Source: Obrimoposthia wandeli (taxonomy: Eukaryota). Taken from it: a stretch of 64,000 bases of DNA. A model generated the notes under the pieces. That model did no database searches and was not told the origin of the DNA. It saw only the letters and a list, made by a program, of their open reading frames with translations. Location: positions 434,001 to 498,000 of the forward strand of contig CDROCS010001981.1 of assembly GCA_977020255.1 (NCBI GenBank), given 5' to 3'. This document shows positions 23 to 45,624 of the stretch, one piece after another. Numbering within the stretch: position 1 is the first letter of the stretch; each line of letters begins with the position of its first letter. A program made the position numbers and the translations under genes.

Positions 23-515
23 TTATCTACATGTCAAGTAATAATAAGAAAGACTGAAACATTTTTTATAAGCGCAATGGTCACTATGATTACGATATGG
101 ACAGCAAATATTTCGTGGAATTTTTAATAGATGATCACGTGAAATATTTAAAGTATTCAACCTCAATTTGGGAAAATATTTTTTTAAAGTCTTATACTTT
201 TTGCCATCCATTTCATCTAAAACATAAAAAATTCCATTTTCTATATCAAAATTAGATGTTATTGTATCGAAAATACATATTTCACAAAAAGCCTTATGTC
301 CTTCTTTCCATTTTAATAAATGAAAGTAATTAGTTATATATAAATAAGTAAATTTTTTCTTATAATCTAAACTTTTAAACGGGATATCTATTTGAAATAT
401 GAAATGCAAAGGATGAAAAACGTCGCATACATCCATAATACATAATTCTTTTATAATATAATCACCATTTTTGTTAATGAAAGCCTCAAAATCTATAATA
501 TATTCCTGCTTAATT
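23..515 (-). CDS. Small DEDD-exonuclease-like protein of the type carried by Polinton/Maverick elements
   Basis: The listed ORF 23..436 extends upstream in frame to EYIIDFEAFINKNGDYIIKELCI (DEDD motif-I-like D-x-E). It continues HLLKWKEG and ends CCPYRNHSDHCA. A possible ATG-AAA mini-exon lies near 580. It is co-oriented with two other ORFs reading away from the terminus at 3741. Confidence 0.55.
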
Positions 516-651
516 ATCTAAATTTGCAGCAAATCCCGTTGTTTATAACGAAAAAATTTATTAAAATAACAAAGTACTTTCATATTAAGATTAGTATATA
601 TTGTCAATTCTCCTATATATTGTAAATAAAGACAAAATAATAATCAAAAAT

Positions 652-972
652 TTATTTTTTTGTAGAAGGACCCTCTTTCGGTTTAATCTGGAGGATTCTC
701 TTTCTTGCTGCTCGCCGAACATCCTCCATCTCTTCTCTTCTTTTTTCATCTACCTTCCTTTTTTCCAATTCGATCTTCTTATTCCACTCCACGATTCGAC
801 GGCGTTCTGCTAGCCTCCTATCCTGTATCTCCACCCGATGATTCCACTCGGTCGCGACAGCAGTATACAAATTTTGATTGAGAACCCTATTTCTTAAGTC
901 CCCTTTCTTCTCATTTATTCTGATGTTTGCTTCAATCTTCGTTACCAAACTCTTCATTTTAATGAATTCCAT
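652..972 (-). CDS. Small charged coiled-coil protein (Polinton accessory ORF)
   Basis: 106-aa E/K/R-rich ORF. A diverged homolog (MEFPEMKRLLTQIE...) at 6346..6489 supports coding status. Confidence 0.55.
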   Translation of the reverse strand: MEFIKMKSLVTKIEANIRINEKKGDLRNRVLNQNLYTAVATEWNHRVEIQDRRLAERRRIVEWNKKIELEKRKVDEKRREEMEDVRRAARKRILQIKPKEGPSTKK

Positions 973-1235
973 TTTTTAATTATGAAGAGGTTAATAAATT
1001 TGAACCTATATGTATAAATTTAAGATATTTTTTAATCCAATTAAATGATATATTTTTATTTATCAAATGAGAGTTTAATAAATCTATAACTTATCATTGC
1101 AAATAAACCTAATAAACTTAAAGATAGTATTTCTAAATTTAAAATTAAAAAATAAATAAATATTAAGAAGAAAACATATGAAATTAATTTTTATAAATTA
1201 TATTCTTAAACATCTTTACGAAGTCATCATTGGGA

Positions 1236-2978
1236 TCATCCAGGATCGAAATCCCTCCGACTAAGTATTATTGGAGAAAGCGGTACTGGTTCCTTCTTCT
1301 TTGGCCGGCCCGGTTTCTTTTTCGCCTTCACCGGTTCTTTTGTAGCAATTGTCCTTTCCTCAGGTTTTGGCAATAGTTGCCGCAACTTTATGGGGGGAGG
1401 TGCAGCCGATGTTGATGGCCCTGACATAGAAGCAGTAGCCTTTCTCTTCCGCGGAGCTTTCTTCTGTTTCTCCTCCTTCTCACGCTGAAGCTGGTGTGAG
1501 ACGGCATCCTGTTGCCCTCGCGAATCTGGAAGCATTGCCGGTGTATCCAGTTCCGCCAGGAATTCGTCCAATCCAGCTTCATCCCAGGCCCTCTTTAAGT
1601 TCTGGCTGGTTGTTGGACGATGAGAAGCCGATGATGTCTCCTGCAGGCGTCGTTGACTTGATGGCGGACTAATCTCGATCGGTGAGACTGGGATCCTCTC
1701 GTATAAAATTGGACTGTCGTCCACTGGAGATGGGAGAATCTCCTGCCGTCCAATCACCGCCTCAGAATAATGACCAATTGAGGTTTTACATTTTCTCGAG
1801 CGCCTCGTCTTCTTCACCTTTGCCCTCTTCGTCCGTTTCCGCGAGAAAGGAGTAATTTCTCCCCAAGTCTCCTCAAATATCGGGACGGGTTCCTGCAAAA
1901 TATTAATAAAATTTAAACATATAAATAATTTACCTCAATGACGGGCAGATTAGCCTGTTTCACCAACTTGGCCTTCTTCAGAGTGTGGGTTTTGACCCGA
2001 TGGCGTTGCGGTTTCTTAACTGCCGCTTGCTTCCTATCCACCGGTTGAATAGGCGTTGCCTCTTCGTGAATGTTCTCCATCTATGTGAATTATTAAATTT
2101 AGTATCTAAATAATTTACCTTAAAATTGTCTGGAGACGCTAGGTATCGAAGCTGACTCCTTGGCAGCTCCTGGCTGCATTGACTCGTCAAGTACTGCGGT
2201 TCAATCAGCCTCTCCGCCATGGTCACTGACGGTGCCAAATCCAGTTGAAGTTTCTGAAAATGAAATTAAAAAACATTTAAAATAAATGATGTCTAACCTC
2301 ATTCGTCGCCTTTATTCTCCTAACAGGAGATTTCGGCCTTTTGAATGGTTCAGGCGCTGTATTATCTGCTTTCAGAGTAGCAGAGGGAGTGAGACCATCC
2401 CAATCGTCGGTGAACAGGTGCCACTCGTCCTCGTCCAATTCTGCAACCATCGAATCGTTGGCTCCTGGGGCTCCGATACTTGGCTGTATCCATTCGTCGA
2501 TGAATGGAGTCAAGTCCTCCTCCCCATCCGACGGTACGTCATCGGTGAACAGCTCCTCGTCTGAGTCTGGTGCGATGACTTTCTCCGGCTGAGACAGCGG
2601 GATCAATTTCCATGGCCAGGATCTTCTTGCTGCTACTGCCGAAGTTGCTGGACGAACAGCTTCTATGTTTTGCCTGGGAGTACAGTCTTCCCAATTCTCA
2701 ATCGAATCCTGACTAGTCAGGTCAATATATTGGGATCTCTGTACCCCGCCTCTCACGTCCATTGGTTCTTCTCTTGGATTTGAGCTGACCAATGAGGCTT
2801 CTTCTTCCAACAGGTTCGCTCTTGTTTCTGCTTCTCCTTCGCTCACCACCGATGAGTCTTGACTATTTAAGTCAATGTATTACGACGGTGGTGGCGTTCG
2901 CTGCTGCACTGGAGAGAGATCCCCATAGAGTTGAACCTCAGTCTCTTCGTCTAGGTCAACGTTGTTGTAGAATGGCAT
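1236..2978 (-). pseudogene. Four-exon gene for a ~539-aa disordered protein (acidic N-terminus with SIM-like YIDL motifs, basic C-terminus with AT-hook-like KKKPGRPKKK); premature TAA at codon 33
   Basis: Exons 2978-2298, 2253-2119, 2080-1934 and 1892-1236 are joined by GT-AG phase-0 introns of 44, 38 and 41 nt, which link the listed ORFs into one frame. TAA at 2880-2882 corresponds to CAG in the second copy. Matching intron positions are visible in the copy at 4.6-6.4 kb. Confidence 0.7.
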
Positions 2979-3012
2979 TGTTGATTTATGAAAAATAATG
3001 AACGGAGGTGTC

Positions 3013-3020
3013 TTTATATA
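3013..3020 (-). promoter_or_regulatory. Candidate TATA box for the four-exon gene
   Basis: TATATAAA on the minus strand, 35 nt upstream of the ATG at 2978. Confidence 0.4.
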
Positions 3021-3299
3021 CACAAATATCTTACTAACCCCTCTTTTATTGTCCAATGAGAGCCTCTTATTTAAATAATTTATTTTTTGTAATGTTTTTC
3101 GTGCCTGGAGATCAAGAATGAAGCCCGCACCGAAGGGGCGGGTGGTGTATGTTAGGGCCTTGGGTATGACACGGGTCGTTTATATTTGTAGTTGTGAGAG
3201 GTAAAGTGATACTGTAACGTATGTATTTGTAGTTATTTTCGTGAGAATAGAGCCCGCCCCGAAGAGGCGGGTGGTGGTCGGTGGGTGTTTCCGTCCAAC

Positions 3300-3557
3300 A
3301 CCCATCGACTTTCACCCATCACCCGTCGACTTTCACCCAACACCCAACGACTTTCGCCCATCACCCAAGGTAGTTCGTGATATACACCAGAGCGAGACAT
3401 TCAGCCATCACCCAAGGTAGTTAGTGATATACACCAGAGCGCGACATTCAGCCATCACCCAAGGTAGTTAGTGATATACACCAGAGCGAGACATTTGGCC
3501 ATCACCCAAGGTAGTTAGTGATATACACCAGAGCGATACATTCGCCCATCACCCAAG
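3300..3557. repeat. Subterminal tandem repeats: 21 bp x3, then 47 bp x4+
   Basis: ACCCATCGACTTTCACCCATC-type units at 3300, 3321 and 3342. CATCACCCAAGGTAGTTAGTGATATACACCAGAGCGAGACATTCAGC units at 3359, 3406, 3453, 3500 and a partial unit at 3547. Confidence 0.9.
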
Positions 3558-3624
3558 CTAGTCTGTGACATATACGAGTCCCGAGCCTTTCGCGCCGATA
3601 GACGCGAAAAAAATGTTCCCCACC

Positions 3625-3698
3625 CTTGTCCTTTAAAACCGTGCATGTGTGTGGAGTGAAATTTCACTCCACACACATGCACGGTTTTAAAGGACAAG
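3625..3698. repeat. Perfect 74-bp palindrome
   Basis: 3625-3661 (CTTGTCCTTTAAAACCGTGCATGTGTGTGGAGTGAAA) is the exact reverse complement of 3662-3698, with no loop. Confidence 0.95.
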
Positions 3699-4579
3699 AA
3701 GGTGGAGGGGGTGTGGATTAGACCGGACACATCCACCTACTCTCGAAATCTCTTTGCCTTCACGATTCTGTATTTACTTCTTGAAATTTCTGCACTTCAG
3801 TAAATGAAATAAATTGTCTTTATATCTTTTTACCTCGTAGCAGATGCGACGAATCTCTCTGTGTTGATTACTACTAAGTGATTCTGCAATTGATATACCG
3901 ATTGGAATACGGGGTGTAATCCTATGACTTGTGCTGCACTGATGTATTATCACTAATGCTGTATCTATTTAACTAGATTCCTTATGGATTATTTTAACTA
4001 AATTTTCTTCTACGACGTCTCTTTTTTCACACTTTTCCTGCTATATATCTACATAATCTTTCAACCTTTTCAGGTCTCAATTTACTTTATGTATATATTT
4101 TAATTATTTCAAGTCTATTTTATTTTAATTAATTTCGACCTAGTCACTAGGTTAAATGTTTGTATAAATAATTGCTATTATTTATTTAAGTATTCCTTAA
4201 TTTAACAATATAGAGTAATGTTTCTTGATTCACATATGTGAGGTGTGTCCATTTATTGCATTTACAGTTTACATAAGTTTAAGTGAATAATAATCAATAG
4301 CATGGAATTTTTTGAATAGCGATAGGTTTTGGATGCTCAAAATTTCCACTTGATCGAATTTGTGAAACAAAATAGAGTCGCAGTGCAACTTAATTTCTTG
4401 CATATACGTGCTTGCTAGAATTATGTTGAAACTAATCGCGAATAGCCTGAAAACCCGACCCTCTGCCCATTTTAACTGACTACCTTTTGATTCCGTAAGT
4501 ATATTTTTGATCGGATTTAAAAAGGCGTCCAAAGAGTGCCAAAAAGAGAAAACAAGTAAAATTACGAAAATGAAGTTAT

Positions 4580-6374
4580 GTCCAACCTAGGATGAAGATA
4601 TGGAGGTTCAGTTGTATGGGGATCTCTCTCCAGTACAGCAGCAAACGCCACCACCGTCGCAGTACATTGACTTACTTAGTCAAGAGTCGTTGGTGGTGAG
4701 CGAAGAAACATCAACAAGAGCGGAGCTGATAAAAGAAGCATCATTGGCTAGCACAACTCTGACAGAAGAATCAATGGGTGAGAGATTGTCAGGATTCGAT
4801 TGAGAATTGGGAAGACTGTACTCCCCAGCAGAATACAGAAGCTGCTCGTCCAGCAACTTCTGCAGAAGCAGCAATGAGATCCAATATATTTGAAAATTTC
4901 AAGGCGGCAACCAAACACCCCTGGAAATTGATCACGCTGTCTCAGCTGGAGATAGTCCTCGCACCGGACTCTGATGAGGAGCTCTTCAGTGATAGGCTAC
5001 CGTCGGATCAAGAATAGAATTTGACTCCATTTTTCGATGAATGGATCCATCCAAGTCTCGGAGCCACTGCCATAAATGAGTCAATGGTGGCAAAATTGAA
5101 CGACGACGAATGGATGGTCTCACTCCATCTGCTACTCCAACTCCGATAGCAGGCAATACGGCAGCTGAACCATTCAGAAGGCCGCAATCTCCGATGCGAG
5201 CAGTTAGGAGAATAAAGACAACAAATGAGGTTAGACTTAATTTATTTCAAATGTTTTTTAATTTCATCTTCAGAAACGTCAACTGGATATAGCACCGTCG
5301 GTAACCACGGTTGAGATGCTGATAGAACTGCAATACTTGGCGAGTCGTTGCAGCCAGGAGCTGCTAAGGAATGAGCTCCATTACCTAGCACCTCCAGATA
5401 ATATCACGTTAAATTATTTTTAATTAGACTTTAAATTTAATAATTCAAATAGGTGGAGAAATTTCTCGAAGAGGCGACGCCTAGTCAACCTGTGGATAAA
5501 AAGCAAGCAGCTGTTAGGAAACCACAACCACATCGGGTCAAAACCCAGACGGTTCACCGGAAAAATGCCAAGTTGGTACAACAGGCAAACCTGCCTGTTA
5601 TTGAGGTGAATTATTTATATGTTTAAATTTTATTAATTTTTTACAGGAACCAGTCCAGATAATTGAGGAGACATGGGGAGAAATTTCTCCTTTCCCGATG
5701 AGACTAATGAAGCAAGCAGATGTGAGGAAGATGAAGCGATCCAGAAAATGTCGCATCATAATGCTCAACACTAGAGAGGCGGTGATTGGCCAACAGGAGT
5801 TTCTCCCATCTCCAGTGGACGACGGGCCAATTTTGTACAAGAAGATACCAGTCTCCGATCGAGATTAGTCCGCTTCCCAGTCAACGACGCCTGCAAGAGA
5901 CGGCACCGGCTCCATTAACCATCAGCCACAATTTGGTCAATTTCTTCTCTGTCAACAGCAAGCCAGAACTTGAAGAGGGCCTGGGATGAAGCTGGATTGG
6001 CCGAATTCTTGGCGGAACTCGATTCTCCACAACCGGCATTGCTTCTAGATTCGAGAGGGCAGCATGATGCAGTCTCATGTCAACTTCAGCGTGAGAAGGA
6101 GGAGAAACTGAAGAAAGATCCGCGGAAGAGGAAGGCTACAAAACCTACAACTTTGTCGACGGGCCATCTACATCTGCTGCACCTCCAAAAAAGATACGAC
6201 AACTCCTGCCAAAAACCTCAAGGAACGGCAATTGCTGCACAATAACTGGTGAAGCCGAAAAAGAAACCTGACCGACCAAAGAAGAAGGAGCCAGTGCCGC
6301 TTACTCCTATACCACTCAGTCGGAGGGATATCGATGAGAATGATCTCAATGCTTCTCATACCACTCTGCTCTGA
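4580..6374 (+). pseudogene. Inverted, decayed paralog of the four-exon disordered-protein gene
   Basis: Colinear homology to 1236-2978 (VQLYGDLSPVQQ, QYIDL, IENWEDCTPQQN, APDSDEELF, KRAWDEAGL, KKKPDRPKKKEPVPL) with several frameshifts and stops. Confidence 0.85.
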
Positions 6375-6489
6375 CAATCTTAAACAAATTAAGATTTAAA
6401 ACTTGCTGTTGCAGGTCTCTTTTCTTTAAATTCTTCTTATAATTTTTCTCTATTTGTGTCAATAGCCTCTTCATTTCTGGAAATTCCAT
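6346..6489 (-). pseudogene. Truncated paralog of the coiled-coil ORF at 652..972
   Basis: MEFPEMKRLLTQIEKNYKKNLKKRDLQQQVLNLNLFKIVRAEW aligns with MEFIKMKSLVTKIEANIRINEKKGDLRNRVLNQNLYTAVATEW. Confidence 0.75.
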
Positions 6490-6569
6490 TTTTAAAATAA
6501 TGAAAGGTAACTAAACTTTTCTTTTTTATAGTCTTTTCTATCTAATTGATTTTATTGATGTGTTAAAAC

Positions 6570-6935
6570 ACAAATTTGTTTTTCTAAATTTTATGTTTTT
6601 TCTAAATTTATGTTTTTTGAAAATTTAAAGTTTTTCGAAATTTTATGTTTTTCGAAATTTTAGGTTTTTGAAAATTTAAACAAAAATTATTTTGAATTTG
6701 GTGCGCACAAATATTGATGCGTTTAAACAAAAATGACCTTGACGTGTTTAAACAAAAGAATGACATTGACGTACTCGGGATAATTGGTTGTCATGAGAAC
6801 ACGCACATGGTAGATGTGTGTGTATTGTTTGCTATGGCAACCAACACGTTTCCATGACAACGCCATCGTACTCTGGATCCTTTTTCATCTGGGGGGACCT
6901 ATTGCCTTGAGTCGAAGTCATCACATCTACCTACT
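6570..6935. mobile_element. Right terminus of a second Polinton-like element (terminus family 3)
   Basis: Ends ...GAAGTCATCACATCTACCTACT at 6935. It is preceded by a G-tract and by short AT-rich tandem repeats (6570-6690), and abuts a pPolB remnant. Confidence 0.65.
6787..6861. promoter_or_regulatory. Cluster of RFX-type X-box motifs
   Basis: GTTGTCATGAGAAC (6787-6800) and GTTTCCATGACAAC (6848-6861) match RYYNYY-WW-RRNRAC exactly. GTTTGCTATGGCAAC (6827-6841) is a near match. Confidence 0.45.
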
Positions 6936-8615: not shown

Positions 8616-9058
8616 TCAAGAAAAAAATACAATAGACTCAACATGACAATGATAATCAAAATATTTAATACCATGAATAATCACTTTTCCACTAGCAAAT
8701 ACATTAACACATATAGGATCAAACTTTAAAATACTGAGTATTGGAAACAATTCTGGCTCAAATATACAATTTCTTCCCATTTTCACAAATATCTTATACA
8801 AATTAACTTTCTTGTTGATATTCACTAGGATAATAAGAGATTGCTTACGTTCAATTTCTATATTTTGGACATGTTTGATTGGTTGTTTGCAACCCATAAT
8901 CCTGCATGAGCCTAAATAGTAGTAGTAGTATAATAATAATACTTGATGGAAATATAACAATAGTATAATCTTTTAACTTTTCAACATATTGTATAGGTTT
9001 CTTCGATCGAAAAGGTAAGTGACTAACACTTCCCTTAAATTTGCTTTATAATTTATAT
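8616..9058 (-). pseudogene. TBP-like (TATA-binding-protein fold) gene, two exons, frameshift in exon 1
   Basis: Exon 2 encodes SCRIMGCK...FEPELFP...VNVFASGKVIIHGIK (compare TBP YEPELFPG...LIFVSGKVVLTGAK). Exon 1 encodes NINYKANL...DYTIVIFPS. A 31-nt GT-AG phase-1 intron lies at 8912-8942. Confidence 0.75.
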
Positions 9059-11782: not shown

Positions 11783-13009
11783 TTACGAGACATAACTGTT
11801 GATGGCTGCGACGGTGTCGATGCTGGGATTGTTAATGAGAGGTAGGCCTCCGCTACTGCTGTGATTGTTGATGAGAGGCAGACCTCCACCATGGCTGGGA
11901 TTGTTGAGAGGTAGACCTCCGCCACTGCTGGGATTGTTGATGAGAGGTAGACCGCCACCGCTGCTTATGTTGTTGGTGTTGGGGAGCTCAAAAGTGGCGC
12001 TGGAACAGTTGACGGATGCGGCAGTAGAGGGCTGTTGTTGGATCACCTTCTTACGAAGGTGAACCTGCTGATGGCGCTTGAGATGCCAGGAATCGTAGAA
12101 TTTCGAGCTGCAGCTATTGCATGAGTAGGGCTTCACTTTTACATGCACCTGCAAATGGTGGCGCTTTAAATGCCAGCTGTCATAGAAACTAGATTTACAC
12201 TCGGTACACTGGAACGGTTTGATTTTCGTGTGGATTTGTTGATGACGCTTGAGATGCCACGAATCCTTGAAGGCCGACGTGCACAATGTACACTTGAATG
12301 GCTTCTCGTTGGTGTGAGTGTACTGATGCCGCTTGAGGTGCCATGAGTCATTGAAGGACGAAGTGCAAAGTTGACAGCGATACGGCCGCGTGTTGAGATG
12401 GGATCGCTCATGACGTCGCAGGTGATGATGGCGGGAAAAGGACGCCGAACAGAGATTGCATAGGAACGGTTTCGAGACGTTCGCCGAGTTAGAAGACTTC
12501 TCAATTTTACTCAGATGACTATTTACTGCTGAGGTGTTGAGAGCTGGTGTTCCCATCGGTGTGATTTTAGAGGTCATCAGTGGCGGAGTGTCTTCGATTG
12601 TAGATGTGGTAACCAGTGGTGTTGATGTACAACTCTCAGAAACTACAGTCGGCTCGTTTTTGCATTCTGATGATGTTGTACTAAGTATAGGCTCCGGAGC
12701 AGCTAAAGCTTTCATTAAACTTTTCGATACATTGCGATCTGGAGGACTTTCTGATTGTTGACTTTGAGATTGAGGCAGTTGAGGAAAGACATCAAATCCA
12801 CGATTGTAATTGTTCAAGTCTTTCATCCAATTGTTTGGGAAATAATTTGGACGACTATTCTGTAACCTTGATTTGGGATCATTCATAAGATGCCCAAAAT
12901 GGAACATATTTTGATCAAAAACATTAATAGGAGAGTTGAAATTTCCTGAACCCACAGGAGCATAGTAGTAATTGAAGTCGTTCATAAAATTTCCAAACCG
13001 AGGGGCCAT
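11783..13009 (-). CDS. C2H2 zinc-finger transcription factor with five tandem fingers (MAZ/VEZF1/ZNF740-like helices); may have an upstream exon
   Basis: Intact 408-aa ORF with five C-x2-C-x12-H-x3/4-H fingers and TNEKPF-type linkers. The ATG is preceded by TTAG, a possible splice acceptor. Confidence 0.9.
   Translation of the reverse strand: MAPRFGNFMNDFNYYYAPVGSGNFNSPINVFDQNMFHFGHLMNDPKSRLQNSRPNYFPNNWMKDLNNYNRGFDVFPQLPQSQSQQSESPPDRNVSKSLMKALAAPEPILSTTSSECKNEPTVVSESCTSTPLVTTSTIEDTPPLMTSKITPMGTPALNTSAVNSHLSKIEKSSNSANVSKPFLCNLCSASFSRHHHLRRHERSHLNTRPYRCQLCTSSFNDSWHLKRHQYTHTNEKPFKCTLCTSAFKDSWHLKRHQQIHTKIKPFQCTECKSSFYDSWHLKRHHLQVHVKVKPYSCNSCSSKFYDSWHLKRHQQVHLRKKVIQQQPSTAASVNCSSATFELPNTNNISSGGGLPLINNPSSGGGLPLNNPSHGGGLPLINNHSSSGGLPLINNPSIDTVAAINSYVS
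11822..11965 (-). repeat. Coding minisatellite, SSGGGLPLINNP x4
   Basis: Four 33-36 nt units in the C-terminal tail of the zinc-finger ORF. Confidence 0.85.
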
Positions 13010-16152: not shown

Positions 16153-16270
16153 AGTAGGATGATGTATCCAGTCTAATCTACCCCTCCCCTAACCAGAGGG
16201 TAACACTGTCCTTTAAAACCATGCATGTGTGTGGTGTGAAATTTTGTGCATGTGTACATGAATTTCACAT
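16153..16270. mobile_element. Left terminus of a Polinton-like element (family 1)
   Basis: Begins AGTAGGATGATGTATCCAGTCTAATC and contains CACTGTCCTTTAAAACCATGCATGTGTGTGG..TGAAATTT. It is inverted relative to the termini at 32501 and 39473, but has no matching 6-bp TSD with either. Confidence 0.75.
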
Positions 16271-17849
16271 CCGACCTCAAAAGCGATTAAAGAAAACCAC
16301 ATCAGTCCATATTGACTCCATCGACTTTTAGTAGACGAAATTTCAGATAATACTTTTGTATGAATAAATGACTACATTTTTATGCAAGTTAAGATGACAA
16401 AAAAAATGTAGGTTAGACTTTTTTTATTAATAAAAACAGGACAAAATTAATTTCAAAACATTTATTTAAAAAATATAAAACATTAGTTTCACTTTAAATA
16501 TAGATGAGGAAAAAAATACAAAATAAAATTAATTTCTATACATTTATTAAAAAACATAAAATATAAAGCACCATATTAGCTTCACCCAAAGAGGCTGTAT
16601 TTTCCCGTCATCTGAACAATATACATTGAGTCGTATTGAAATATTCCATAACTCTTCATCTAAAATAGGAGCAATCAAATAACCTATATCATCTGTAAAA
16701 GCCAGACTGGGATCAGTTTCAATTTTGAAAGAATTTCCTTCGTTTACATAAAACCAGGTATGTAAAATTTCAAAATATTCTTGAATTGATCAATATCAGA
16801 TGTTGGTTTAATTTCAATTAAATATTTATTTTTCACTTTTGATATTTTCACAGGATTCATAACTCAAACAAAATGATCAAAGCAGACTTCTTTGGATAAA
16901 AAAGTAATTTAGAAGTCTTCCAATAATCTTTTCTAAGATTGTAAATTATATTATGTAATTCACTCGGAATACTTTCATCTACTTCCATCTAATTTATCAG
17001 TTACCCAGTAAATCTCCAACCGATGAAAATTGAGATTGTCAAAATAGAATCTCCCTCAGAGTTAGTAATGTTGGTTGGCAAATGTCCTTTCCCACGAATA
17101 CCTTTTTCAAGCAGCATCCCGGGAACAATTACATAGTAGATCCAGGTTTTAGCTGTAAGGACATGAAAACGTGCGCAAACCTATGATAATATCTTACCTG
17201 GAATATAGGAGATATTGAGAGGTTCGGTCATCGGCGATAGTCTTGTTGTAAATACATCTGTAGATAGATTTTCAACAAGACTACTAAACTAATCGAATAC
17301 ACACTCCATCAATGTGCGCTGTTCCCTAAATTTCTCCAATCAATTGAAAAATTACAAGCAATGCTCACAAATATCACTAAATCTCACATAATTTCTCCCC
17401 TAGAACTACATAAATATCATAAATTTCCTGAACATATCATTAATTCCCCAAATATATCATTAATTTTGCCTTTAGAATCATCTAAATATCAAAAAATTTC
17501 TTAACAAAAAATCATCCACTTTGCCTATATAGCAACTTATGTTTACCAGCTCGTGTTTTAGCATGAAACAAAGCAAGTAGAGGTTTCTAATGTCGATTCA
17601 TTGAAGCATTAACAGTTCCTTTATTAGAAACTATTTTTGAACCATATTAAGTTAATCATATATTACAAAAGTAGGAAATGATGTAAGTTGGACGACAAAA
17701 AGCAGGTGAATGCATAATATAATTGAATTAAGTGATACTCCTAGATTTCCTATCACAAACAACCATTCTTTTCTTATTTCATTTTCGAGCAACCTTTTTC
17801 CTTGCACTCAATTTCTTCACTTCAAGTTTAATAATTTCCTTTTTAAATC

Positions 17850-18460
17850 TCATTTTCGAAAAACAGGTTTCTTTGATTGTTTATAAACGGTAATCCCTAA
17901 TGGAATGAATATATCAAATCTAAATTTTAAGTCATCAGGACAATATTGAGTAAAATCAATAAACATATTGTGAGGAGCAGTAGTTATCTCTTGAAATGAA
18001 TAAATTAGGTAATTTATAATAACAAAATCAATAACAGTCTGATCACATGGATTCTTGAAGAGAACAAGGTAATGTACATTTAAGTTACGAGTTCTATGAT
18101 TTTTATCTTTATGAAATATATTTCGTATGATGAACATAACAGTTACTTTTCGATGTCTTGCTATTTTAGTGAATAAAATATTGGAATCACTCTCTTTATT
18201 TGCTTCTTGATACAAGTCATCAATAACAATAACATCATGACGCTGTAATAGCTCAGATCAATTATCATCAAATCCATTACTGACTTTTATATTTTTGATT
18301 TCCTTAAACTCTTTACTAGTTAAACCTGCTTCTCATTCTCCTCCCTGATGCCAATATATATTTTAAACTTAAATCTAAAGTATTTATTATTTTGCAGTAA
18401 CCTACAAACACAAAGAGTTTTCCCGCTACCACTAGGCTCTACAATTTGAAAAACTTAATT
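17850..18460 (-). pseudogene. Polinton/adintovirus A32/FtsK-like genome-packaging ATPase
   Basis: Decayed Walker A IVEPSGSGKT (18421-18445), Walker B VIVIDDL, then LFTKIARHRKVTVMFI.RNIF...LNVHYLVLFKNP. Two in-frame TGA stops. Confidence 0.9.
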
Positions 18461-19689
18461 ATTTTTAAAATCTATATTAAAAATATTGCAGTACTGAGAT
18501 AATGTTTATAAGACAAAAAACAGTTACATAAAATATTTGATTACAATATATCTACAATAAACAATAAAAAAACTCTTATCCCAGAAAAAGCTCTTCTGGG
18601 ACGTGTTCTCTTCTTTATTTTTGTTGTAGCCCAAAATGAGGTGATCGACATCCTTGTTGATAAACAATGATTTTTCGAAATAAAAACTTTCCCTACCTTG
18701 TCAAGATCTTCTTTGAAATGATAAGGAGTAGACAAAATAAAGAAGTCTGAATAAAAAGTAATCTGTTTATATACTATACAACTGAAATATGATTGGATGC
18801 TAATTTAGAAAGACACTAAGAAATAAAAATATTGACTCATAAAGAATACAATTTATATATGATAATGATTAAAAATACGTATTTGATTAAGCATTGTTTC
18901 ACTAAAAGCAGGAATACGACGTTTAGCTTTAACACGATTGGAATCAGTGCTAACGCGCACTGAAAGAGATAAAATGCAATAACAATACAAACAGCATGTC
19001 AACTTCAATAATGATCATATAATAGAACTTTCCCTCCATTTTTGATAGTTTCTTTTATTATATTATTAGTTTGTTTATAATATTGTAATATTGTTTCTCC
19101 TAATTTCGAATTTACAAAGATAGACGTATACTTTTATTTCTCATAAGATATCTTATTCATTATATGTGTATTGATGACGTGGGTGAATTCTGATTTTAGA
19201 AGCTCAGTTTCATCAATATCATCTCAATAATTTCCAATATACAATTGATATACTAAAATCTCGCTCATTGGTGTTCTGTTTAATCTTGCCGCACTAAGTT
19301 GACTAAATCTAGCTTGAAACAAACTATCAAAAAGGTGGGACATATGATTCATTTCTATACTGGAAGCATGAGCTATTATGGGTTCCATAAAAGCCAAAGC
19401 ATTTAAGAAATATGATCGTTTGTTTTCTTCTTCAATAATTAATTTCACTTCTTCAATAGTTTAAGTAAATATTTATCGTTGATGCTATCGTTGTCTTCGT
19501 CGCTGCTGCTTCATTACGCTTATCCATTTATTGATAAATTAAAAGATATAAGATTATTTTTTATAACTAAAAACAAAGATAAATCTCTTTTTAGTAATAT
19601 TGCAACTTATTTGTAAGTGATGTCTTTGTGTAGGGAAGAATTAACACAGGTGTGAAGATATATATTAAACAAAATACATTCAATAAAAT

Positions 19690-20130
19690 ATTCATAACTA
19701 AGTGACTTAATACCAAGTATCATCATCTTCTTGCTCGCAAAAATGTTCACACTTAGTGGATTGTATTTGGCATATCGAAGTCCCGGATAAATTTATGGCT
19801 CGTAAACTGCATCCAATCCCATACTCTTGCTCAGTTTGTTTAGGTTTATCGGTTTTTCCAAAATAGTACTGACGCTGATTGATTGGATTCTTTCGATTTT
19901 ATTATCGAAAGGAAGAGTGCTGTCATCTAACACTGCTTTACAGCCCATTATTGTGAATGTTTCTAAATTATATTAAAAATTAAATTGTAAAATAAATTAC
20001 TAGATTTGAATATTATAATAGAATAATCTTCTCACTTGAGCCGATTCTAGTGTGGCTTCGAATTCCGAAATAGTAAGTGTTGGATGTTTTTTCCATTTCC
20101 ATATAATTAATATTCACAAATTTGAAATTG
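19690..20130 (-). pseudogene. Second TBP-like gene, two exons
   Basis: VNINY...DYSIIIFKS | TFTIMGCK...INLNKL...VYEP*IYPGL...VNIFASKKMMILGIK. A 38-nt GT-AG phase-1 intron at 19963-20000 sits at the same codon as in the 8.6-9.1 kb copy. Confidence 0.75.
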
Positions 20131-20267
20131 TGAAGTAATATTTCTGACTATTATAAACTGATTCTTATATACTATTTGAAAATATATTTTTAGACCACAT
20201 GTGATATCTTTGATCAATTGTTTATCCCGTGAAATCATATAATTTTTAATCGTCTAATGATAATTGT

Positions 20268-21162
20268 CTAGCAATATATATATGAAATAAATAGATCTGA
20301 ATATTTAATACATGTATTAAAGTGTCCATATGGTAAAGATGCTACAGAAATCATATCTGACAAGCAAATAATACATTTGGAATTTGGTAAAAGGTATTCA
20401 AGATAATTTTTAACATGACTTGGTTCAGGTTTTATTTGTAAAGAACTTAAATCCGTTAGAAACTCATATATAAAATCATATTTTTTATCAAATGTTTTAA
20501 ACGTATTTTCTAAAACGGATATGATTCTATACAATATCGATATGAATCATTCCAAATAGAGATATGTTGGAAAATCAACAATGTAGGTATTATAAAATCA
20601 TTATGCGTACAATAACTACTTTATGCACTAGATTTGTATCAAAATAAACTTTCTTGTTACTAGTTTCAAATATTGATACATTTAACACATTAATTTTCAA
20701 GTCAAACGGACATGTCGGGAAATAAATCATATGTTCCTTCATTGGTTTAAAATACCACTCTCATTCAGATAATGCACCTTTACAATAAACATATTTTACA
20801 TTATCAGTTAAATCATCATGTTTATAAAACCCGGCTTTTGCTGATGCTTTCTTATCCACTAAACCATTAAACTTTCTTTGCAATGATTCTAATCTAGCCC
20901 GTTCGAATATCATATCTTCATTTCTTCTTGAAATTTTATCAAAACGAAGTCGTCTAATGCTACTTTCTTCATTTGAGATACATAATAAAGAAGATGAGGA
21001 AAGTTTCAGCTCAAATACTATTTGAAAATCTAATTTTAGACCACATTGCATGGTATACTTGATAATGTTGATGGATATAATAAAGCATTCACTGCAATTA
21101 AAAAGAATGCTAGTGTATATCTTGGTACAAAAACTTTCAGTAAACGTTCCATATACCAGCAT
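20268..21162 (-). pseudogene. Inhibitor of apoptosis (IAP), BIR + C-terminal RING
   Basis: BIR: ERARLES...KAGFY...DNVKYVYCKGALSE*EWYFKPMKEH...PTCPF. RING: CIICLSDMISVASLPYGHFNTCIKY. Shows Cys-to-Tyr and Trp-to-stop decay. Confidence 0.85.
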
Positions 21163-21325
21163 TTTTAAATATTAAATTAACTTGCTAATTATATAATACT
21201 TATTTTGTTAAGTAGTTAGTTTAATTATATTTAGTAAATTCAATACTACTTTGTTTTATGAGTAGTTAAATAAAATTAGGTTTAATTTTTACAAGTATAT
21301 AGTTAACTAGTAGTAAGTAGCAAAT

Positions 21326-25038: not shown

Positions 25039-25740
25039 ACTTCGCAAAGATAACTTCATTAAAATATTAGACAATCTACAACTGCATGCTTACACAGCTT
25101 TAAAATAAATGTGGTTTACTATTTTTTTGTTTCAAAAACTTTCACTAATCCATAATAAATAAAGATCCTTCATTGGCTATGCGATAGACTAAGTTGTAGC
25201 GTGCTTCAAAGGCCTTGTATCCGATACACATTGCATTATTATTGATAATAGATGTTGGATGTTTGTTTTAATATTCGACAATCCGTAAAACGGCAGAATT
25301 TGAATATATCGTTCTCCACTCCATCTTGGAATTAACTACAAGCTATTTCGGATATGAAGGAATTGGAAACCATCAGCACTTTCGATGGGACTTCGCAAAG
25401 ATAACTTCATTAAAATATTAGACAATCTACAACTGCATGCTTACACAGCTTTAAAATAAATGTGGTTTACTATTTTTTTGTTTCAAAAACTTTCACTAAT
25501 CCATAATAAATAAAGATCCTTCATTGGCTATGCGATAGACTAAGTTGTAGCGTGCTTCAAAGGCCTTGTATCCGATACACATTGCATTATTATTGATAAT
25601 AGATGTTGGATGTTTGTTTTAATATTCGACAATCCGTAAAACGGCAGAATTTGAATATATCGTTCTCCACTCCATCTTGGAATTAACTACAAGCTATTTC
25701 GGATATGAAGGAATTGGAAACCATCAGCACTTTCGATGGG
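25039..25740. repeat. 351-bp tandem duplication spanning flank, 5' LTR and gag start
   Basis: 25039-25389 and 25390-25740 read as identical. Confidence 0.9.
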
Positions 25741-26345
25741 ACGTCGAATGTGGATGAGTGAATTAGTGAGATCAAATTGAAGGCCGATCTGCTTGGACTG
25801 GAGAAGAAATTAAGTTCAATTATTCCGCTGAGAATGAAAGGTGAATGTTTAGAATTTAGAAGAAGACGAAAATAGGACGCAGAATCAATTATGAAGCGAT
25901 TAAGGGATACCTATGGGATGGGTCAGCTCGAGGCGTTCAAGCGATTCAGTCAAAGGAAGTGGTACCTCGGAGAATCAGTCGATCGGTTCACGTCGGAATT
26001 GAAAAGTTTGGCATCTAAGATTGGTATGGGAGATAACATTGAAAAATTGGTGCTAGTCGCTGGCCTGCCTTCAGACACTTCAGAAGCTCTGGAAATTTCG
26101 ATGAAGTGTGGATACTGTTCCTTAGATCAAGTTATAGCTGAAGTCCGGACTAGGATGACAAAATAAATTGGAATTGAAGGTATCTTCCAAGTTGTAGCTG
26201 TTCATCATAGAAAAAGAATAATTAATTGAGGAATCAAATGCTTCCGATGTGGAGATGAAGGCCATGTTTCTAGAAACTGATATGTGGAAGAAAAACAAAG
26301 ATGCTACATCTGTAATATAGTTGGTCACTTGGCGCCATTATGTCC
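25705..26345 (+). pseudogene. gag: gag with two CCHC zinc knuckles
   Basis: ATG 13 nt after the LTR; WYLGESVDRF; CFRCGDEGHVSRN* and CYICNIVGHLAPLC. Contains stops and frameshifts. Confidence 0.8.
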
Positions 26346-26399
26346 CAAACGAGAATCAAAAACCACTAAGGGAGTCCGTATGCGCCAGCGGCTCTCCCA

Positions 26400-29181
26400 G
26401 TAATATGTCGTATATTCCAACTGTTATCATCCAAAAAAAAGAAGAAGCTTTGAAAGCAATGGTTGATACGGGATGTTCGAGATCTATTCTTTCGGATGCG
26501 TTGACAGTCAAAGGATTAATCACAAATTTTGATCATAACATAATATTAATGAACGGAGAAAATGTAAATTCGAGGAAGTGCATGGAATGTGAAGTTAATG
26601 TCAATGGACGTAAAATTCGGCTAAATTACATCGTTTCTCGTATAGTACCTGGCTATGACATGTTGTTGGGAATGGATGCTGTCAATATACTTGGTGGAAT
26701 TTAGGTAAGTGGTGATGGAAAGAATGTTAAGTTTGGCCTATTCAATGATGTATATGCGGTATCAGATTCATCGAATCCGGTTGGAGTCGATGATCATGTG
26801 AATGTGCTTCCGGGCAAACAGTTCTTTTTAGAACTAACAATTGATTGTGCGATGGAAGAAATAGTAGGATGTGGTTCCACAGTGAATAGTACATTCAAGT
26901 CAACGGATGAAACTTGTGTACATGAAGGAGGAATGAAAAAATCCCATTCATGGAGAAGTCGTGGATGTCGTGGATAAGGATTTCCATGCAAAGTTCGAGA
27001 ATGGAAGATGGATCGCGAGATGGGAATGGAAAGAAGGAATCGTGAAGCCAGCTCTACAGAACCAGGTGAGTCAATATCGGGTAAAGGACGAGGTACTAAA
27101 TCAATTTGAAGAAGAGATTGAAGAATGGATAGAACAAGGTTGGCTGAGAAAGTATGATGATGAGCACACTGGTGTAATACCTCTCATAGCCGTTCTACAG
27201 CAAAACAAAGGAAACGTTCGTCGTGTGATGGATTATGGAGAGCTTAACGATTATGTTTCAAGCCATACAGCTAAAAGTGAAGTATGTGGCGAAAAGCTGA
27301 GAGAATGGAGGAGATTGGGAGACAACTTGAGCATTGTGGATTTAAGGAAGGCTTATCTACAAATTCATATTGACCCAACTTTGTGGAAATATCAGGTTGT
27401 AGTTTACAAAGGAGTTCGATACTGTTTAACGCGTCTTGGTTTTGGACTCAACGTAGCTCCAAAGATTATGTCAGTAATCGTAAGGTAGGTTTTGTCAATG
27501 GATCAGACGGTGGCAAGTGTAACGGATTCTTATGTAGATGATATAGTTGTTAATGAAGAGATAGTATCTACTGAAGAGGTTATCAATATGTTATTAAAGT
27601 ACGGTTTAGAATCGAAGCCACCAGAAAAGCTGAATGGTGGTAGAGTGCTGGGATTGCGAATTCATCAAAACCAAAATGTGATGGTATGGAAGCGCGACAA
27701 TATACTGGCTAAAGGGAATGACAATTTAACGCGAAGGCAAATGTTTTCTCATTGCAGTCAGATGATTGGACACTTTCCCAAAGCTGGATGGTTGAGACTG
27801 GCGTGTAGTTATTTGAAAAGATTGACAAACGGTACTAATTGGGAAGACAACGTCGAGAGTAAAATCGTTGAAAAGCAGAAAGAAATTGAGGAACGTGTTT
27901 CGGAAAACGATCTTGTGCGAGGAGTTTGGAAAGTGACTGATACGATTGAAGGAACAGTTTGGTGTGATGCTAGCAGTCTCGCAATTGGAGTCGTAGTGGA
28001 TATTGATAGTTCGGTAGTTGAAGACTTCAGTTGGTTGCGGAAGGAAGATGACTTCTCTCACATCAATTTGGCAGAGTTAGAAGCAGTTGTCAAATGACTT
28101 AATTGTGTGATCAAATGGAGGCTGTCGCGAATTCTTGTTTATACAAATTTGTCTACGGTTCATGGCTGGGTAAAGTCAATTACATCGGGAGACAAATGAG
28201 TAAAAACGCATGGTCTTGGATCGGCATTAGCGTATAGGCGACTGAATCTATTGAAAACCATAATAGAAGAATGCAGACTAACTGTTAATATCAGGCTAGT
28301 AAAGTCAGCAGGAAACAAAGCTGATGAGCTTACCAGAGTGTCCCAAAAGCGTGGCCTGCAGTAGCGTAATCGGCAATGAAGCATAAATATTGGCAGTGCA
28401 CAACCTGAATCATCTTGGCATTGACAGAACAACGTATCTTTTAAAATGTCAGTATCCTGAACTCAATGTGAAACGAGAAGAAGTAGCAGCTGTCGTATAA
28501 CGCTGTTTTAAATGTAAAAGTATAGATCCAGCATCAATTCGCTGGGAACATGATGAGTTATCAGTTGATGCAAATTGGAGTCGATTGGCCTGTGATGTAA
28601 CCCATTATTTAGGGAAGTGTTACTTATCCATTATCAATTGTGGACCAAGCCGATTCACCATATGGAAGTTGCTCAATGATGAGACACATTATTCAGTGAC
28701 TACCGCCATGACCGATGTCTTCAGAGAACACGGGTCTCCAGATGAGTTGTTGATGGATAATAACCCAACCTTTAAGTCACGGCATTTTCAAAACGCTTGT
28801 GGATCATGGAAGGTCAAGTGTGTGTTTCGATGTGCTTATCGACCATCAGGAAATGGGATAGTGGAACGTGTTCACAGAACCGTCAAACGAATGGCTGCCA
28901 GAAGCGATGCAGATATTCGCGACATGTGTTTTTGGTATAATGTTTCTCCGAAATGTAGTAACAAGGACAATTCTGTTCCCGTGCGAGAACTGTTTACATA
29001 CGAATGGCGATATCCAAACGTTGAACCAAATTTGTCGACATTTCAAAACATTACAGGTTACAACATGGATCAGGCTGTATTTGTCAAACCTCCCAATGTG
29101 CGTTGCACATCAGTTTGGCCTAAGGGAGTAATTACTGGTTTGAGTGGAGCAACGCAGGTAGAAATCGACGTAATTCCTTGA
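26400..29181 (+). pseudogene. pol: pol (protease, reverse transcriptase, RNase H, integrase)
   Basis: AMVDTGCS (PR); VDLRKAYLQI, LGFGLNVAP, YVDDI (RT); WCDASSLAIG, HINLAELEAV (RH); HHLGIDRT, LACDVTH, LLMDN, GNGIVERVHRT (IN). Multiple in-frame stops. Confidence 0.92.
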
Positions 29182-32100
29182 CACGTGGCCGACGTCAGAC
29201 CGATTCCAATACCACTACCAGAACGGCCAGAGACAAATGCAAATGTAGGAGAAAAATAAGTGGCTTCCGATGATGCCAGAGAATGCCCACAAAGGGCCGT
29301 ACGGCGACCGGCCTATTTAGAAGACTATGTGTGATCTAGAGATCAAGGGGGATTGTTGTTGGATGTTTGTTTTAATATTCGACAATCCGTAAAACGGCAG
29401 AATTTGAATATATCGTTTTCCACGCCATCTTGGATTTAACTACAATAGTATTATTGTTGGTCTTTTTAAATAGAAAAATGACATTTTAAGTGTATTTATA
29501 TACTTTTTATTTATCAATTTTCTTAATAATTTGATTTTCATATTTGTTATTCTTTTTTTCATATTTATAATTATTTTGTAAAAACAATTTAAATAAAAAA
29601 TACATTTTATTATTAAATAAAATAAGAAAATGAGACAATGTACCATGACAATTACAAGCAACCTTTCTCTGAACATCAAGTTTAGTCGAGAAGAATGGAG
29701 GCAAATTCTGAAACGGAATAAAACTATCAAAGGTGTATTTAATAATGTTGATCTTACGATGAGGCAAAAAGCACTATAAATGTAACATCAACTTTATTTA
29801 GCTTATTTTTGTGTTAAGCTAAGTATTTATTAAAATTTAGTTATGTCCAAATTATAAACGTATGATCCTTATTTAGAAATTCTTAGTTGTGTTATCGGTA
29901 GAGATTACGAGCCCCGATAGTTCATGCAAGTAGTGAGACCCGTGGTCCAATTCCCGGTTACGAACCCTAAATTGGCTTAGAAAAAGATTCGATTTGATAT
30001 ATCGTATAACCAAATTAACTCAAATATAACTCAAATTCTTTCTTATTAGTAGAGAAATTCAATGTTGAAAATTATAGAAACTATTATGGATTTTGATCAT
30101 ACAAAGAAATATTTACATGTCACCTTTTTTATCACACCAAATGGGCAAAGTGACATGGTTACTTAAATGAGATAATTTTGGTCTTTTTAAAGATGTAGAA
30201 ATAATTTCTTTATTCTAATAAAACTGTACTCCCGATTTTCTCAATATACATTTTCTTAGAATCATATTCTATGGAATAAAAAAGAAGCAATTGACTATTT
30301 TCATTTATTTATGGCCAAATGTTAATTTTATAAGTTTAAAATTGATGACTAGAATAAAAAATTGTAAAGTATAAATTTGACAGTTAATCCTCCAAATTTC
30401 GGTAAATTTTCTATTTTAAATAAGCAAATATCGACAAGATATATTAGACATTTATTTTATCATTTACATAAATAATTTGAAATTTATATAGTAAAATTTA
30501 ACTCTCGGATAATGAGAATTTAAGAAATCTATTAATGGATATAGTTAATAAATTCATGCTAAACTTCTGTGATGGAACTTTAAAAAATTTAATTGAAAAG
30601 AGTAAAGAATATTTAATCTAATGAAAAAAATAGAATTACCTTAGTCCTCAATTATCAACTCAATATTAACTTCAGTTTTATTTAACCTACCAAAAAAATA
30701 AGAACTTATAAGGCATGAATTAAGGTTTTAATTTTATTAATAGGTCAATTGTCAATATTATTTAAACAATGTTGGTTACATTTCTCTCCTACTTAACTTT
30801 AGCGACTATTATCCGAATCATAATAGATAATGCATCTTACTCAAACTAGCGGCACTAAATACGATGTTCAAAAACTGTTTAATTGCCAAAAATATCCTGC
30901 TTGCATAAAAATTCAAAAACATTGATATGACCATATTTATGCAAAAGGTCTTGAAATTCCAACTCTTGAATTGATGTTTTATGATTTCAACTGTCTCGGC
31001 AAAGCGTTAGTTAGTAATGAACTCGCTTTGGTGCTCTAGCCTTTAATTAAAAAAAAATAAAAAGAGAAAATAAAAAGAGACTGTATTGAAGCAAATTCAA
31101 TTTCTTGTGATTGATTTGATTATAAAGTTACCAAGAATCAATTTATTGTCGTATATGATAGTACGTTCCCTTGAAATCCAGTTAAGCTATCATATACTAA
31201 ATATGGATGAGTTATATTCATATAAAATCATATAAATATGTATACACAACTTGTATTTCTGCATAAATTGACCAAAGTTTCTACTGTAAATAGCAAATTT
31301 ACATATGGGCTGCGAAATATTTGCACGCACACAGAAGTACTGAGATACTAATCCTAATTGAGCAAGAATATGCAAATGGAATAATGAGGAAAACTAACCT
31401 TCGTAGTCTATCATCCCATCACCGTCCTGGTCTGCCTCAGTCACCATTTCTTCTGCCTCTTCTTCGCTCATCTTATCCCCACGAGTCATCAGGATACGTC
31501 TATAACAGCCAAAAAATATCACTTACCTACAAGCTATCTTTCAGAGGTGGACGAACTTATGAGACAGATAAATAATATTACGTAACATCGTCTGATTTAA
31601 GAGATTCATTGCTAACTTTTATTTTAAAATTTAGAAATATTTTTGATATGCATTATTTAATTTAATTTTATGAGGTGAGCAGTATACAGTGACGATTCAG
31701 TGGCATTGCAGCACAACACTTTTAATGTCATTTCCAACTTTCCAATTATCCATAAAAATATGTTCATCAGATCCGATAGCCAATATCCAATTGTTGCATG
31801 ATTTCATTCAATTGTTTAACGTCTTCATGATAACTTTGATGATGAAATCAAACTAGATTTTATTCAATTTGACATGAATGGAGAAGATATATTTTTCTGG
31901 ATTATTCAATAATTCAATCCATAGTAATGATAAGGATCTTGAAGTTGTGGTTTCTTCAATTTGATGGCATCATTGGAGATATCACAATATAAATGTTAAA
32001 TAAAATACTTGCAACTGTTCTTTAAATAAATTGCGTTAGTAAAAGTTATTCGAAATATCGTAGTATTTTGATAATATTTTGTCGACTTTGTGTAGTTGGA

Positions 32101-41466: not shown

Positions 41467-41592
41467 GGATTCGGATCGAGCCATCTCTCCGACAAACTCA
41501 CTATTGTGCTAAGGATTCGGATCGAGCCATCTCTCCGACAAACTCACTACTGTGCTAAGGATTCGGATTGAGCCATCTCTCTGACAAACTCG
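41467..41592. repeat. 46-bp tandem repeat, ~2.7 copies
   Basis: AGGATTCGGATCGAGCCATCTCTCCGACAAACTCACTATTGTGCTA units. Confidence 0.85.
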
Positions 41593-41690
41593 GAATTTTA
41601 ATTGGAGGTGAGCCGAGAAAGAAATTGGTAAAGAGTACTTTCATAAAATAGAATTGGTAGTGAGTAATTTCGAGAATTTTGTAGCAAGTA

Positions 41691-42135
41691 TTTTCATATC
41701 GTAAAGTATAATTTGATAGTGAATAATTTCATATCGTAAAGTATAATTGGATAACGAATATTTTCATATCGTAAAGTATAATTTGATAACGAATATTTTC
41801 ATATCGTAAAGTATAATTTGATAACGAATATTTTCATATCGTAAAGTATAATTTGATAACGAATATTTTCATATCGTAAAGTATAATTTGATAACGAATA
41901 TTTTCATATCGTAAAGTATAATTTGATAACGAATATTTTCATATCGTAAAGTATAAATTTGATAACGAATATTTTCATATCGTAAAGTATAATTTGATAA
42001 CGAATATTTTCATATCGTAAAGTATAATTTGATAACGAATATTTTCATATCGTAAAGTATAATTTGATAGTGAATATTTTCATATCGTCAAGTATAATTT
42101 GATAGCGAATATTTTCATATAGAAAAGTATAATTT
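41691..42135. repeat. 35-bp tandem array, ~12 copies
   Basis: TTTTCATATCGTAAAGTATAATTTGATAACGAATA units with no spacers. Confidence 0.95.
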
Positions 42136-44540: not shown

Positions 44541-45055
44541 AATTATTATACTTCTGTTAGGTTTAGGAATTAGGAAATTAAAATAATTAGTCGATTTTAT
44601 ACTAAAATAAAAATCCTTGAAAGCAAGGTTGAAAATTAAATTAAATATTAATTTTAAAATTCAAAACTAAAATTATTAGGATAAATATTAGGAGGACCAC
44701 GAAGGTCGTGTATAGTGTGTGATATATAAGGTTAGAATTAATTAACCCAAAAGTGCAAAAAAGGGAACAATCTAAAAATCTGCAAACGTCAGCAGAAAAA
44801 CAAAAAGAAGAAAAAAGGTAAGCACATTTACGTGCAATTGATTAGATTAATTTGATATTAGCAGCTGCCCGGACTCACGTTGGACTCAAGTTTGCTGATT
44901 GACAGCAAACAATCCTATATAAGTCGCTGAGAACGCACCAGTGAACAAAAAACAGCAAAGTAAAGAAAAATCAATATTCCAGGTCTACTGAGCGGAATCG
45001 GAGATTTGGTAAGTGGAGATTTGGTAATTTCATTGAATTAAACTAGTCTAGATCA

Positions 45056-45515: not shown

Positions 45516-45624
45516 TATTGCTTAAAAGAAGCCGATCGTCTCAATAATTCCAGCTAATTCCAGTGCCGGATTTGACGTAGTCGCAGCTAGTCGCAGCATA
45601 GGTGAGAAAACTGTTTAAAATAAT

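Follow-up and report, generated by a model that had tools for sequence, protein, structure and literature searches.

The window analysed here, a 64,000-nt stretch of an Obrimoposthia wandeli contig, carries on its minus strand a gene that starts with an ATG at position 2978 and whose four exons join into 539 codons (table 1). All three introns are tiny, lie in phase 0 and run from GT to AG, with a GC content of 12-18% compared to 50-51% in the exons. These coordinates, splice ends and GC contrast bear out the four-exon model of about 539 codons with three tiny phase-0 introns put forward in a first-pass annotation, and the TATA box that it placed about 35 nt upstream of the ATG is present. The TATA consensus has a background of 1.02 per kb per strand in the window; the box itself lies about 80 nt from a GC-rich tract, and a reverse CCAAT-like pentamer is found some 35 nt further upstream. 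A scan of the whole window for short introns (30-55 nt, GT[AG]..AG, at least 80% AT, flanks at least 40% GC) returned five rows: introns 2 and 3, intron 3 of a second gene copy (two overlapping rows) and one opposite-strand row over the same stretch of that copy. Intron 1 is missed by this pattern because its donor is GTT. Introners have been described in Maverick-like elements of dinoflagellates (PMC11957031). The case for an introner origin of the present introns is weak: introns 2 and 3 resemble each other (8 of 1000 shuffles), introns 1 and 3 do so less (21), and introns 1 and 2 do not (242).

The 539-codon frame is not open in the copy at 1236-3020. A stop lies in frame at codon 33 (2882-2880), which breaks this copy and keeps it from making the long product. 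An alternative genetic code was rejected as an explanation, both because this is the sole TAA/TAG in 539 codons with 5.4% Gln and because other long frames stay open when read with the standard code.

Table 1. Position in the window of the gene, its parts and its surroundings.
Feature	Position	Strand	Remarks
Gene Z, second inward	23..517	-	DEDDh-fold protein of Mavericks/adintoviruses
Gene Y, next inward	652..972	-	106 aa, charged, no family
AATAAA hexamer	1055..1060	-	3' of stop; possible poly(A) signal
Exon 4	1236..1892	-	218 codons and stop; NLS-like basic tract, hook-like tail, three short helices (predicted)
KKKPGRPKKK, AT-hook-like or NLS	1293..1322	-	residues 512-521; GRP core, basic flanks
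Best-kept stretches between copies	1437..1601	-	residues 419-437 (18/19) and 455-473 (17/19); overlap only predicted helices
Intron 3	1893..1933	-	41 nt, phase 0, GC 0.12; GT/AG kept in sister copy
Exon 3	1934..2080	-	49 codons, basic
Intron 2	2081..2118	-	38 nt, phase 0, GC 0.16; in sister copy acceptor kept, donor altered/shifted
Exon 2	2119..2253	-	45 codons
Intron 1	2254..2297	-	44 nt, phase 0, GC 0.18; GT/AG kept in sister copy
Exon 1	2298..2978	-	227 codons, acidic; in-frame stop at codon 33
Acidic-aromatic region	2388..2606	-	residues 125-197; LFTDD twice; predicted acidic activation domain
SIM-like motif 3, YIDLTSQDS	2703..2729	-	residues 84-92
SIM-like motif 2, YIDLNSQDS	2853..2879	-	residues 34-42
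SIM-like motif 1	2943..2963	-	residues 6-12; looser, VDL + acidic; not in the first-pass annotation
TATA box TATATAAA	3013..3020	-	34 nt upstream of ATG
Element end	3100..3741		GC 44-53%; 21-nt and 47-nt tandem repeats; near-perfect palindrome 3620-3705
Sister copy	4585..6352	+	75% nucleotide identity with gaps
Truncated Y-like gene and second AGTAGG-type end	6352..6935	-	Y-like part 6489-6352; end at 6935

The second copy of the gene, which the first-pass annotation missed, retains all three intron positions. It carries many frameshifts and two stops and is a pseudogene; an alignable promoter and the first 7 codons were not found in it. Both gene copies in the window are now broken. The differences between them are unevenly spread over the codon positions (73/510, 73/508 and 122/510 mismatches at positions 1, 2 and 3), 365 of 502 codons are identical (73% at the amino acid level), and dN/dS is 0.38 (bootstrap 0.30-0.50; 502 codon pairs). 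By exon, the predicted frame gives 0.38, 0.41, 0.18 and 0.45. The other two same-strand frames reach at least 0.79 in seven of eight cases counted per exon (1.01 and 1.53 in exon 1, for example, vs 0.38); the exception, 0.48 in exon 2, comes with 5 stop pairs, whereas the predicted frame of that exon has none. One opposite-strand frame mirrors the signal (0.12-0.55), yet contains 2-7 stop pairs per exon. The four exons occupy three different genomic frames, and the frame of lowest dN/dS moves exon by exon as the intron lengths require, so selection appears to have followed the spliced product. Among the sequencing runs listed as containing the sequence none is of RNA, and four come from one sample, possibly the one behind the assembly; a 7% share in one metagenome was left out of account. 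The comparisons of the copies support a real, once-selected gene, probably spliced as the earlier annotation predicted.

Upstream of the gene lies the tract that gives the locus its setting. Read on the minus strand from 3741, it terminates in AGTAGGT, a motif shared by several other ends and close to, although not identical with, vertebrate motifs. Its outer 85-115 nt or so are 76-78% like the termini at 16153, 32501 and 39473; the near-perfect palindrome of 86 nt at 3620-3705 is represented in related ends mainly by one arm. Long inverted repeats with a 6-bp target duplication are the Maverick signature described in PMC8097293, and the sizes of terminal inverted repeats (TIRs) and duplications given in 10.1101/2023.08.22.554363 fit a 640-nt end tract. 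Taken with gene Z (below), these features make it an accessory gene in the slot nearest one end of an integrated Maverick/Polinton (adintovirus-like) element, a type that would fit an animal host. The original placement directly inside a terminal repeat thus stands for this one AGTAGG end; the partner that would make it a repeat lies outside the window, as do the element's core genes. A further AGTAGG end at 6935, beside the sister copy, does not align with the 3741 end, and no target-site pair joins either of them to another end within the window. Elsewhere, a 2.2-kb element with AGTAGG ends (33583-35825) shows inverted repeats of about 510 nt built from 16- and 99-nt units and a 6-bp duplication. 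It is without a long ORF, has a related end at 48483 and is likely a non-autonomous Maverick derivative.

Two genes follow inward. The Y-like gene beside the sister copy (6489-6352) shares 23 of 46 amino acids with gene Y. Gene Z starts about 720 nt downstream of the gene on the same strand and has relatives (33-43% identity) in seven metagenome loci, L001-L007, of which L001, L002 and L007 look like one element and are not independent. A protease-like gene lies just upstream of the Z relative in six of the seven, L002 beginning at Z itself. In L007, the neighbours named by Pfam are Pox_A32 (7.6e-7), rve (1.4e-12) and Peptidase_C5 (3.4e-6); Pfam matched 4 of the 10 proteins compared, and others we take to be capsid and polymerase proteins. 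The structural model of gene Z (pLDDT 83) matches a protein of Drosophila-associated adintovirus 2 (E 6.8e-7), and the gene also matches ichnovirus proteins. Among solved structures, the modelled fold is closest to Maelstrom MAEL domains (Z score 11.2, rmsd 3.1, 146 aligned; next 9.9), with unrelated exonucleases at 9.6; Maelstrom is also its top named Atlas family (0.87, a lead only). A role for gene Z as piRNA-pathway mimic or antagonist is possible on this modelled likeness, and no literature on a Maelstrom-like Maverick gene appeared at title level among the matches listed. Viral contigs scanned with Z, the Z alignment, the ATPase and the terminus pattern yielded nothing. Since gene Z is found in Mavericks and adintoviruses, the locus is tied to the element. 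The AGTAGG end at 3741 and a Maverick gene two genes inward agree with the earlier assignment of the gene to the element rather than to an unlinked host locus. Altogether, we consider it very likely, on the strength of its sequence, that the gene is real, spliced and element-borne.

The rest of the window is dense with repeats and holds further Maverick-type pieces, including an ATPase remnant (61% identical to that of L007), an integrase fragment and two TBP-like genes. A decayed Maverick at 16153-21171 comprises the end at 16153, a packaging ATPase (17874-18359), a TBP-like gene and, at 20268-21171, weak IAP-like (BIR/RING) frames. TBP-like genes occur in a Maverick context at 8655-8912 (-), at 19700-19957 (-) and in L006 (1688-2191), where the gene adjoins protease and Z; the Pfam TBP match is 1.6e-7 for the 8655-8912 gene and 4.9e-12 for that of L006. 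No literature on a Maverick TBP was found at title level among the matches listed. Both TBP-like genes of the window show AT-rich, GT-AG, intron-like gaps at the same place (8942-8912, minus strand, 31 nt; 20000-19963, minus strand, 38 nt), absent from L006. Other features are an LTR retrotransposon (25039-29445) with protease, DUF7047 and integrase matches, in which a 351-nt unit stands twice at the left and appears again at the right; an intact-looking single-frame C2H2 zinc-finger gene with a 36-nt repeat tail (11783-13009, minus strand); an intact-looking single-frame RING/TRAF-zinc-finger coiled-coil gene (60122-61156, plus strand); and, at 40075-47450, a further element family made of related repeats with long tandem arrays (units of 35, 38, 42 and 31 nt) and common flanks, some of them inverted.

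Searches with the gene itself returned no homologue. Exon 4 has none among longer proteins (0/1571 candidates), among 1.84 billion representatives, among solved structures, in 15 stretches of viral contigs or in 499 metagenome contigs, and the open part of exon 1 has none among 2199 longer candidates. None of the four exons has a match in Pfam, neither exon 1 nor exon 4 has one in PHROGs, and the best tblastn match of the exons to the seven metagenome loci had an E of 0.26. Two Atlas matches to exon 4 at 0.77, one automatically named 'AT hook domain-containing', fell below lead level and were not used. Homology pipelines had been expected to miss the gene, and it was missed in these searches with exon 4 and part of exon 1. 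With no homologue found outside the window, the reading of the motifs rests on a comparison with one broken copy.

The protein looks disordered. Disorder-promoting residues make up 66% of it, residues 1-200 carry a net charge of -34 and the remainder is mostly positive, and the single-sequence model of exon 4 is coil except for three helices (pLDDT 58, pTM 0.17). The absence of Pfam families and the predicted disorder of exon 4 are in line with the earlier statement that no folded domain is recognisable; a sequence-specific DNA-binding domain was likewise not found in the protein. What the protein does hold is short motifs. A duplicated YIDL(N/T)SQDS motif, an acidic-aromatic patch, basic NLS-like tracts and KKKPGRPKKK had all been reported and are all there, the duplicated motif at residues 34 and 84, the patch (ELDEDEWHLFTDDWDGL) at residues 180-196 and one of the basic tracts in exon 4 at 1841-1791. 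The pattern [VILFY][VI]DLT is a SIM pattern. Acidic and Ser/Thr residues come after the YIDL cores, which agrees with a loosely defined SUMO-interacting motif (SIM), a hydrophobic core of four residues with acidic or phosphorylatable residues behind it (PMC12751080). Three SIM-like motifs, here all within the first 92 residues, occurred in 0/500 shuffles, five K[KR]x[KR] tracts in 0/500, 9 S/T-Q sites in 6/500 and 15 S/T-P sites in 3/500, although these counts are optimistic since the patterns were picked after the protein was seen.

The acidic-aromatic region may be an activation domain of the type first proposed for it, as it passes the rule of Kotha and Staller (equation 1 of PMC10550315), which scores 39-residue tiles by charge and W+F+Y+L. 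Eight tiles (starts 125 and 151-159) pass, together spanning residues 125-197. The rule is also satisfied by 32/2000 shuffles of the whole protein and by 368/2000 shuffles of exon 1, so the match mostly reflects composition; in the cited work, 72% of the tested predictions, made on human transcription factors, were active. The proposed AT-hook survives in part: the GRP core with basic flanks is present, but the central RGR stressed for canonical HMGA-type hooks (PMC11354804) is missing (RGRP is absent from the protein, and Pfam AT_hook gave no match at E 0.05), and the core glycine is changed in the sister copy.

Conservation of the motifs above background, which the earlier reading implied, was not found between the copies. 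SIM-like motif 2 keeps 7/9 residues (background 0.727, p 0.54) and the hook 9/10 (p 0.20, the glycine being the sole change), while the second YIDL motif (mostly) and the WHLFTDD patch fall in deletions of the sister copy. Given that this sole homologue is a decayed pseudogene, the result neither refutes nor supports the motif reading. The best-kept stretches lie elsewhere (table 1). Their p values (0.019 and 0.075) apply to stretches chosen after looking and we do not deem them significant; these helical stretches, not named in the earlier annotation, are likely a protein-binding module. The third exon-4 helix (1437-1520, minus strand) has what we take to be a loose resemblance to the ubiquitin-binding MIU motif, without its usual alanine.

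The known gene sets of Mavericks consist of replication and capsid genes and a few unknowns. Tentatively, and with limited confidence, we favour the reading of the gene as a nuclear regulator, probably host-derived, that the element kept to raise its own transcription. Host RNA polymerase II would transcribe the gene from the TATA promoter that it has next to the end repeat, no element product being needed, and the host spliceosome would take out the three tiny introns. Basic tracts could then bring the protein to the nucleus and provide weak, non-specific binding to DNA or chromatin, the SIM-like motifs could tether it to repressors or SUMO-marked chromatin at the element, and the acidic-aromatic region could recruit co-activators; the net effect would be more transcription of the element's inner genes. 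A narrower version is doubtful, in which the gene is the regulator that acts first in an animal Maverick: spliced, close to the end and coding for an acidic activator that reads SUMO, analogous but unrelated to E1A/ICP0. If it were true, an element family with TBP-like and Maelstrom-like genes may run and shield its own transcription. The gene is at least a concrete candidate switch whose motifs are separately assayable, and an end-proximal, motif-only regulator of this kind would escape homology searches. The claim is limited in that neither copy in view is alive and the searches brought up no homologue from outside. At title and abstract level, a Maverick transactivator, SIM protein or SIM-plus-acidic regulator was not found among the literature matches listed.

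A nuclear function apart, the codon usage and the introns of the gene suggest cargo acquired by capture, which the earlier annotation did not weigh. Nematode Mavericks have a high-GC, poorly conserved, intron-bearing cargo region of 2-5 kb beside one TIR (10.1101/2022.07.12.499685), and the present gene adjoins an end, is high in GC and has predicted introns; the intact vertebrate Maverick genes described in PMC8097293 are intronless. GC3 is 0.49-0.61 in the exons, similar to two other genes in the window, the zinc-finger one (0.50) and the TRAF-like one (0.42), and lower in element-type genes (Z 0.18, ATPase 0.19, IAP-like 0.22, TBP-like 0.26 and 0.41), although the 0.41 of one TBP-like gene means that the contrast is not clean. 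The ends next to the two copies belong to unlike families, and the gene is better kept (73%) than gene Y, which fits movement between elements. We conclude that the gene was probably captured from a host genome and then kept under purifying selection. Yet that it is nothing but captured cargo, with a job unrelated to element transcription (a passenger or host-manipulating gene, like the protease and kinase cargo of nematode Mavericks), is rather unlikely. The gene seems to have been under selection during its time in the element, and no host homologue was found in the collections searched. Moreover, the tiny gaps in the TBP-like genes suggest that the element family may have introns in its own genes, so that introns need not mean capture. 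If the gene is plain cargo after all, the intron-bearing cargo slot extends to a disordered nuclear protein.

Somewhat less probable again is a counter-defence protein rather than an activator, whose tandem SIM-like motifs would sequester or break up complexes of SUMO-dependent silencing or of the DNA-damage response while its acidic patch engages a repressor or ligase of the host. The cluster of SIM-like motifs and the many S/T-Q and S/T-P sites would suit such a role, as would the Maelstrom-like DEDDh-fold gene two genes away, and the viral SIM proteins ICP0 and BGLF4 act against PML/SP100-type restriction (PMC12751080). However, the protein contains no RING, LxCxE or CxxC motif, its acidic region passes the activation rule, and a deletion in the sister copy removes one of the SIM-like motifs. 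Chance proximity of an ordinary host gene family to element ends would explain the host-like codon use and could be expected in so repeat-dense a window; it is very improbable, because both copies adjoin a Y-like gene and an AGTAGG-type end and gene Z follows on the same strand. Least probable of all is a structural or replication helper, such as a disordered core protein that condenses DNA, or a factor that binds the ends, with its basic half on DNA and its acidic half as a chaperone-like counter-charge, which the charge split and the adjoining end repeat would fit but which sits poorly with a protein of 539 residues bearing SIM-like and activation-like motifs, with its own TATA promoter and with its absence from the capsid modules of L001-L007.

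The nuclear regulator that we favour can be set beside several known systems. Vertebrate Mavericks (PMC8097293) share AGT-starting ends, the 6-bp duplication (here at 33583-35825) and core gene types among relatives. They differ in their ends, which are (AGT)2 or (AG)3 rather than the AGTAG(G/A)T of the window, and in their listed gene set, which is without a gene like the present one. The TIR-proximal cargo of nematode Mavericks (proteases termed WASP, kinases termed KRMA; 10.1101/2022.07.12.499685) is alike in its first slot, high GC, poor conservation and introns, but as described there it consists of folded enzymes with ubiquitin-like domains and many homologues, whereas our gene looks disordered and motif-based, with no homologue found. 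The 'Oncoid' genes of adintoviruses (PMC8502044) are alike as accessory genes of the same kind of element, recognised only through short linear motifs and interpreted as regulators in the nucleus. They are defined by LxCxE and/or CR1 near paired CxxC (PMC8502044, section 3.2), and an Oncoid identity was rejected, since the protein has 0 matches to each of these patterns and shows instead SIM-like and acidic-aromatic motifs and predicted splicing. Genes with introns next to the ends of Mavericks are already described, as are accessory genes known by motifs only.

Adenovirus E1A and HSV-1 ICP0 are spliced immediate-early genes that lie next to a genome end. The present gene has no sequence relationship to such regulators (no Pfam family in any exon) and is without their zinc finger or RING, and the label 'immediate-early' is for it an analogy by anatomy only. 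That anatomy, as predicted here, is a spliced gene at the end of an element, encoding a disordered protein with acidic and SUMO-binding-like motifs, as in the E1A/ICP0 type of regulator.
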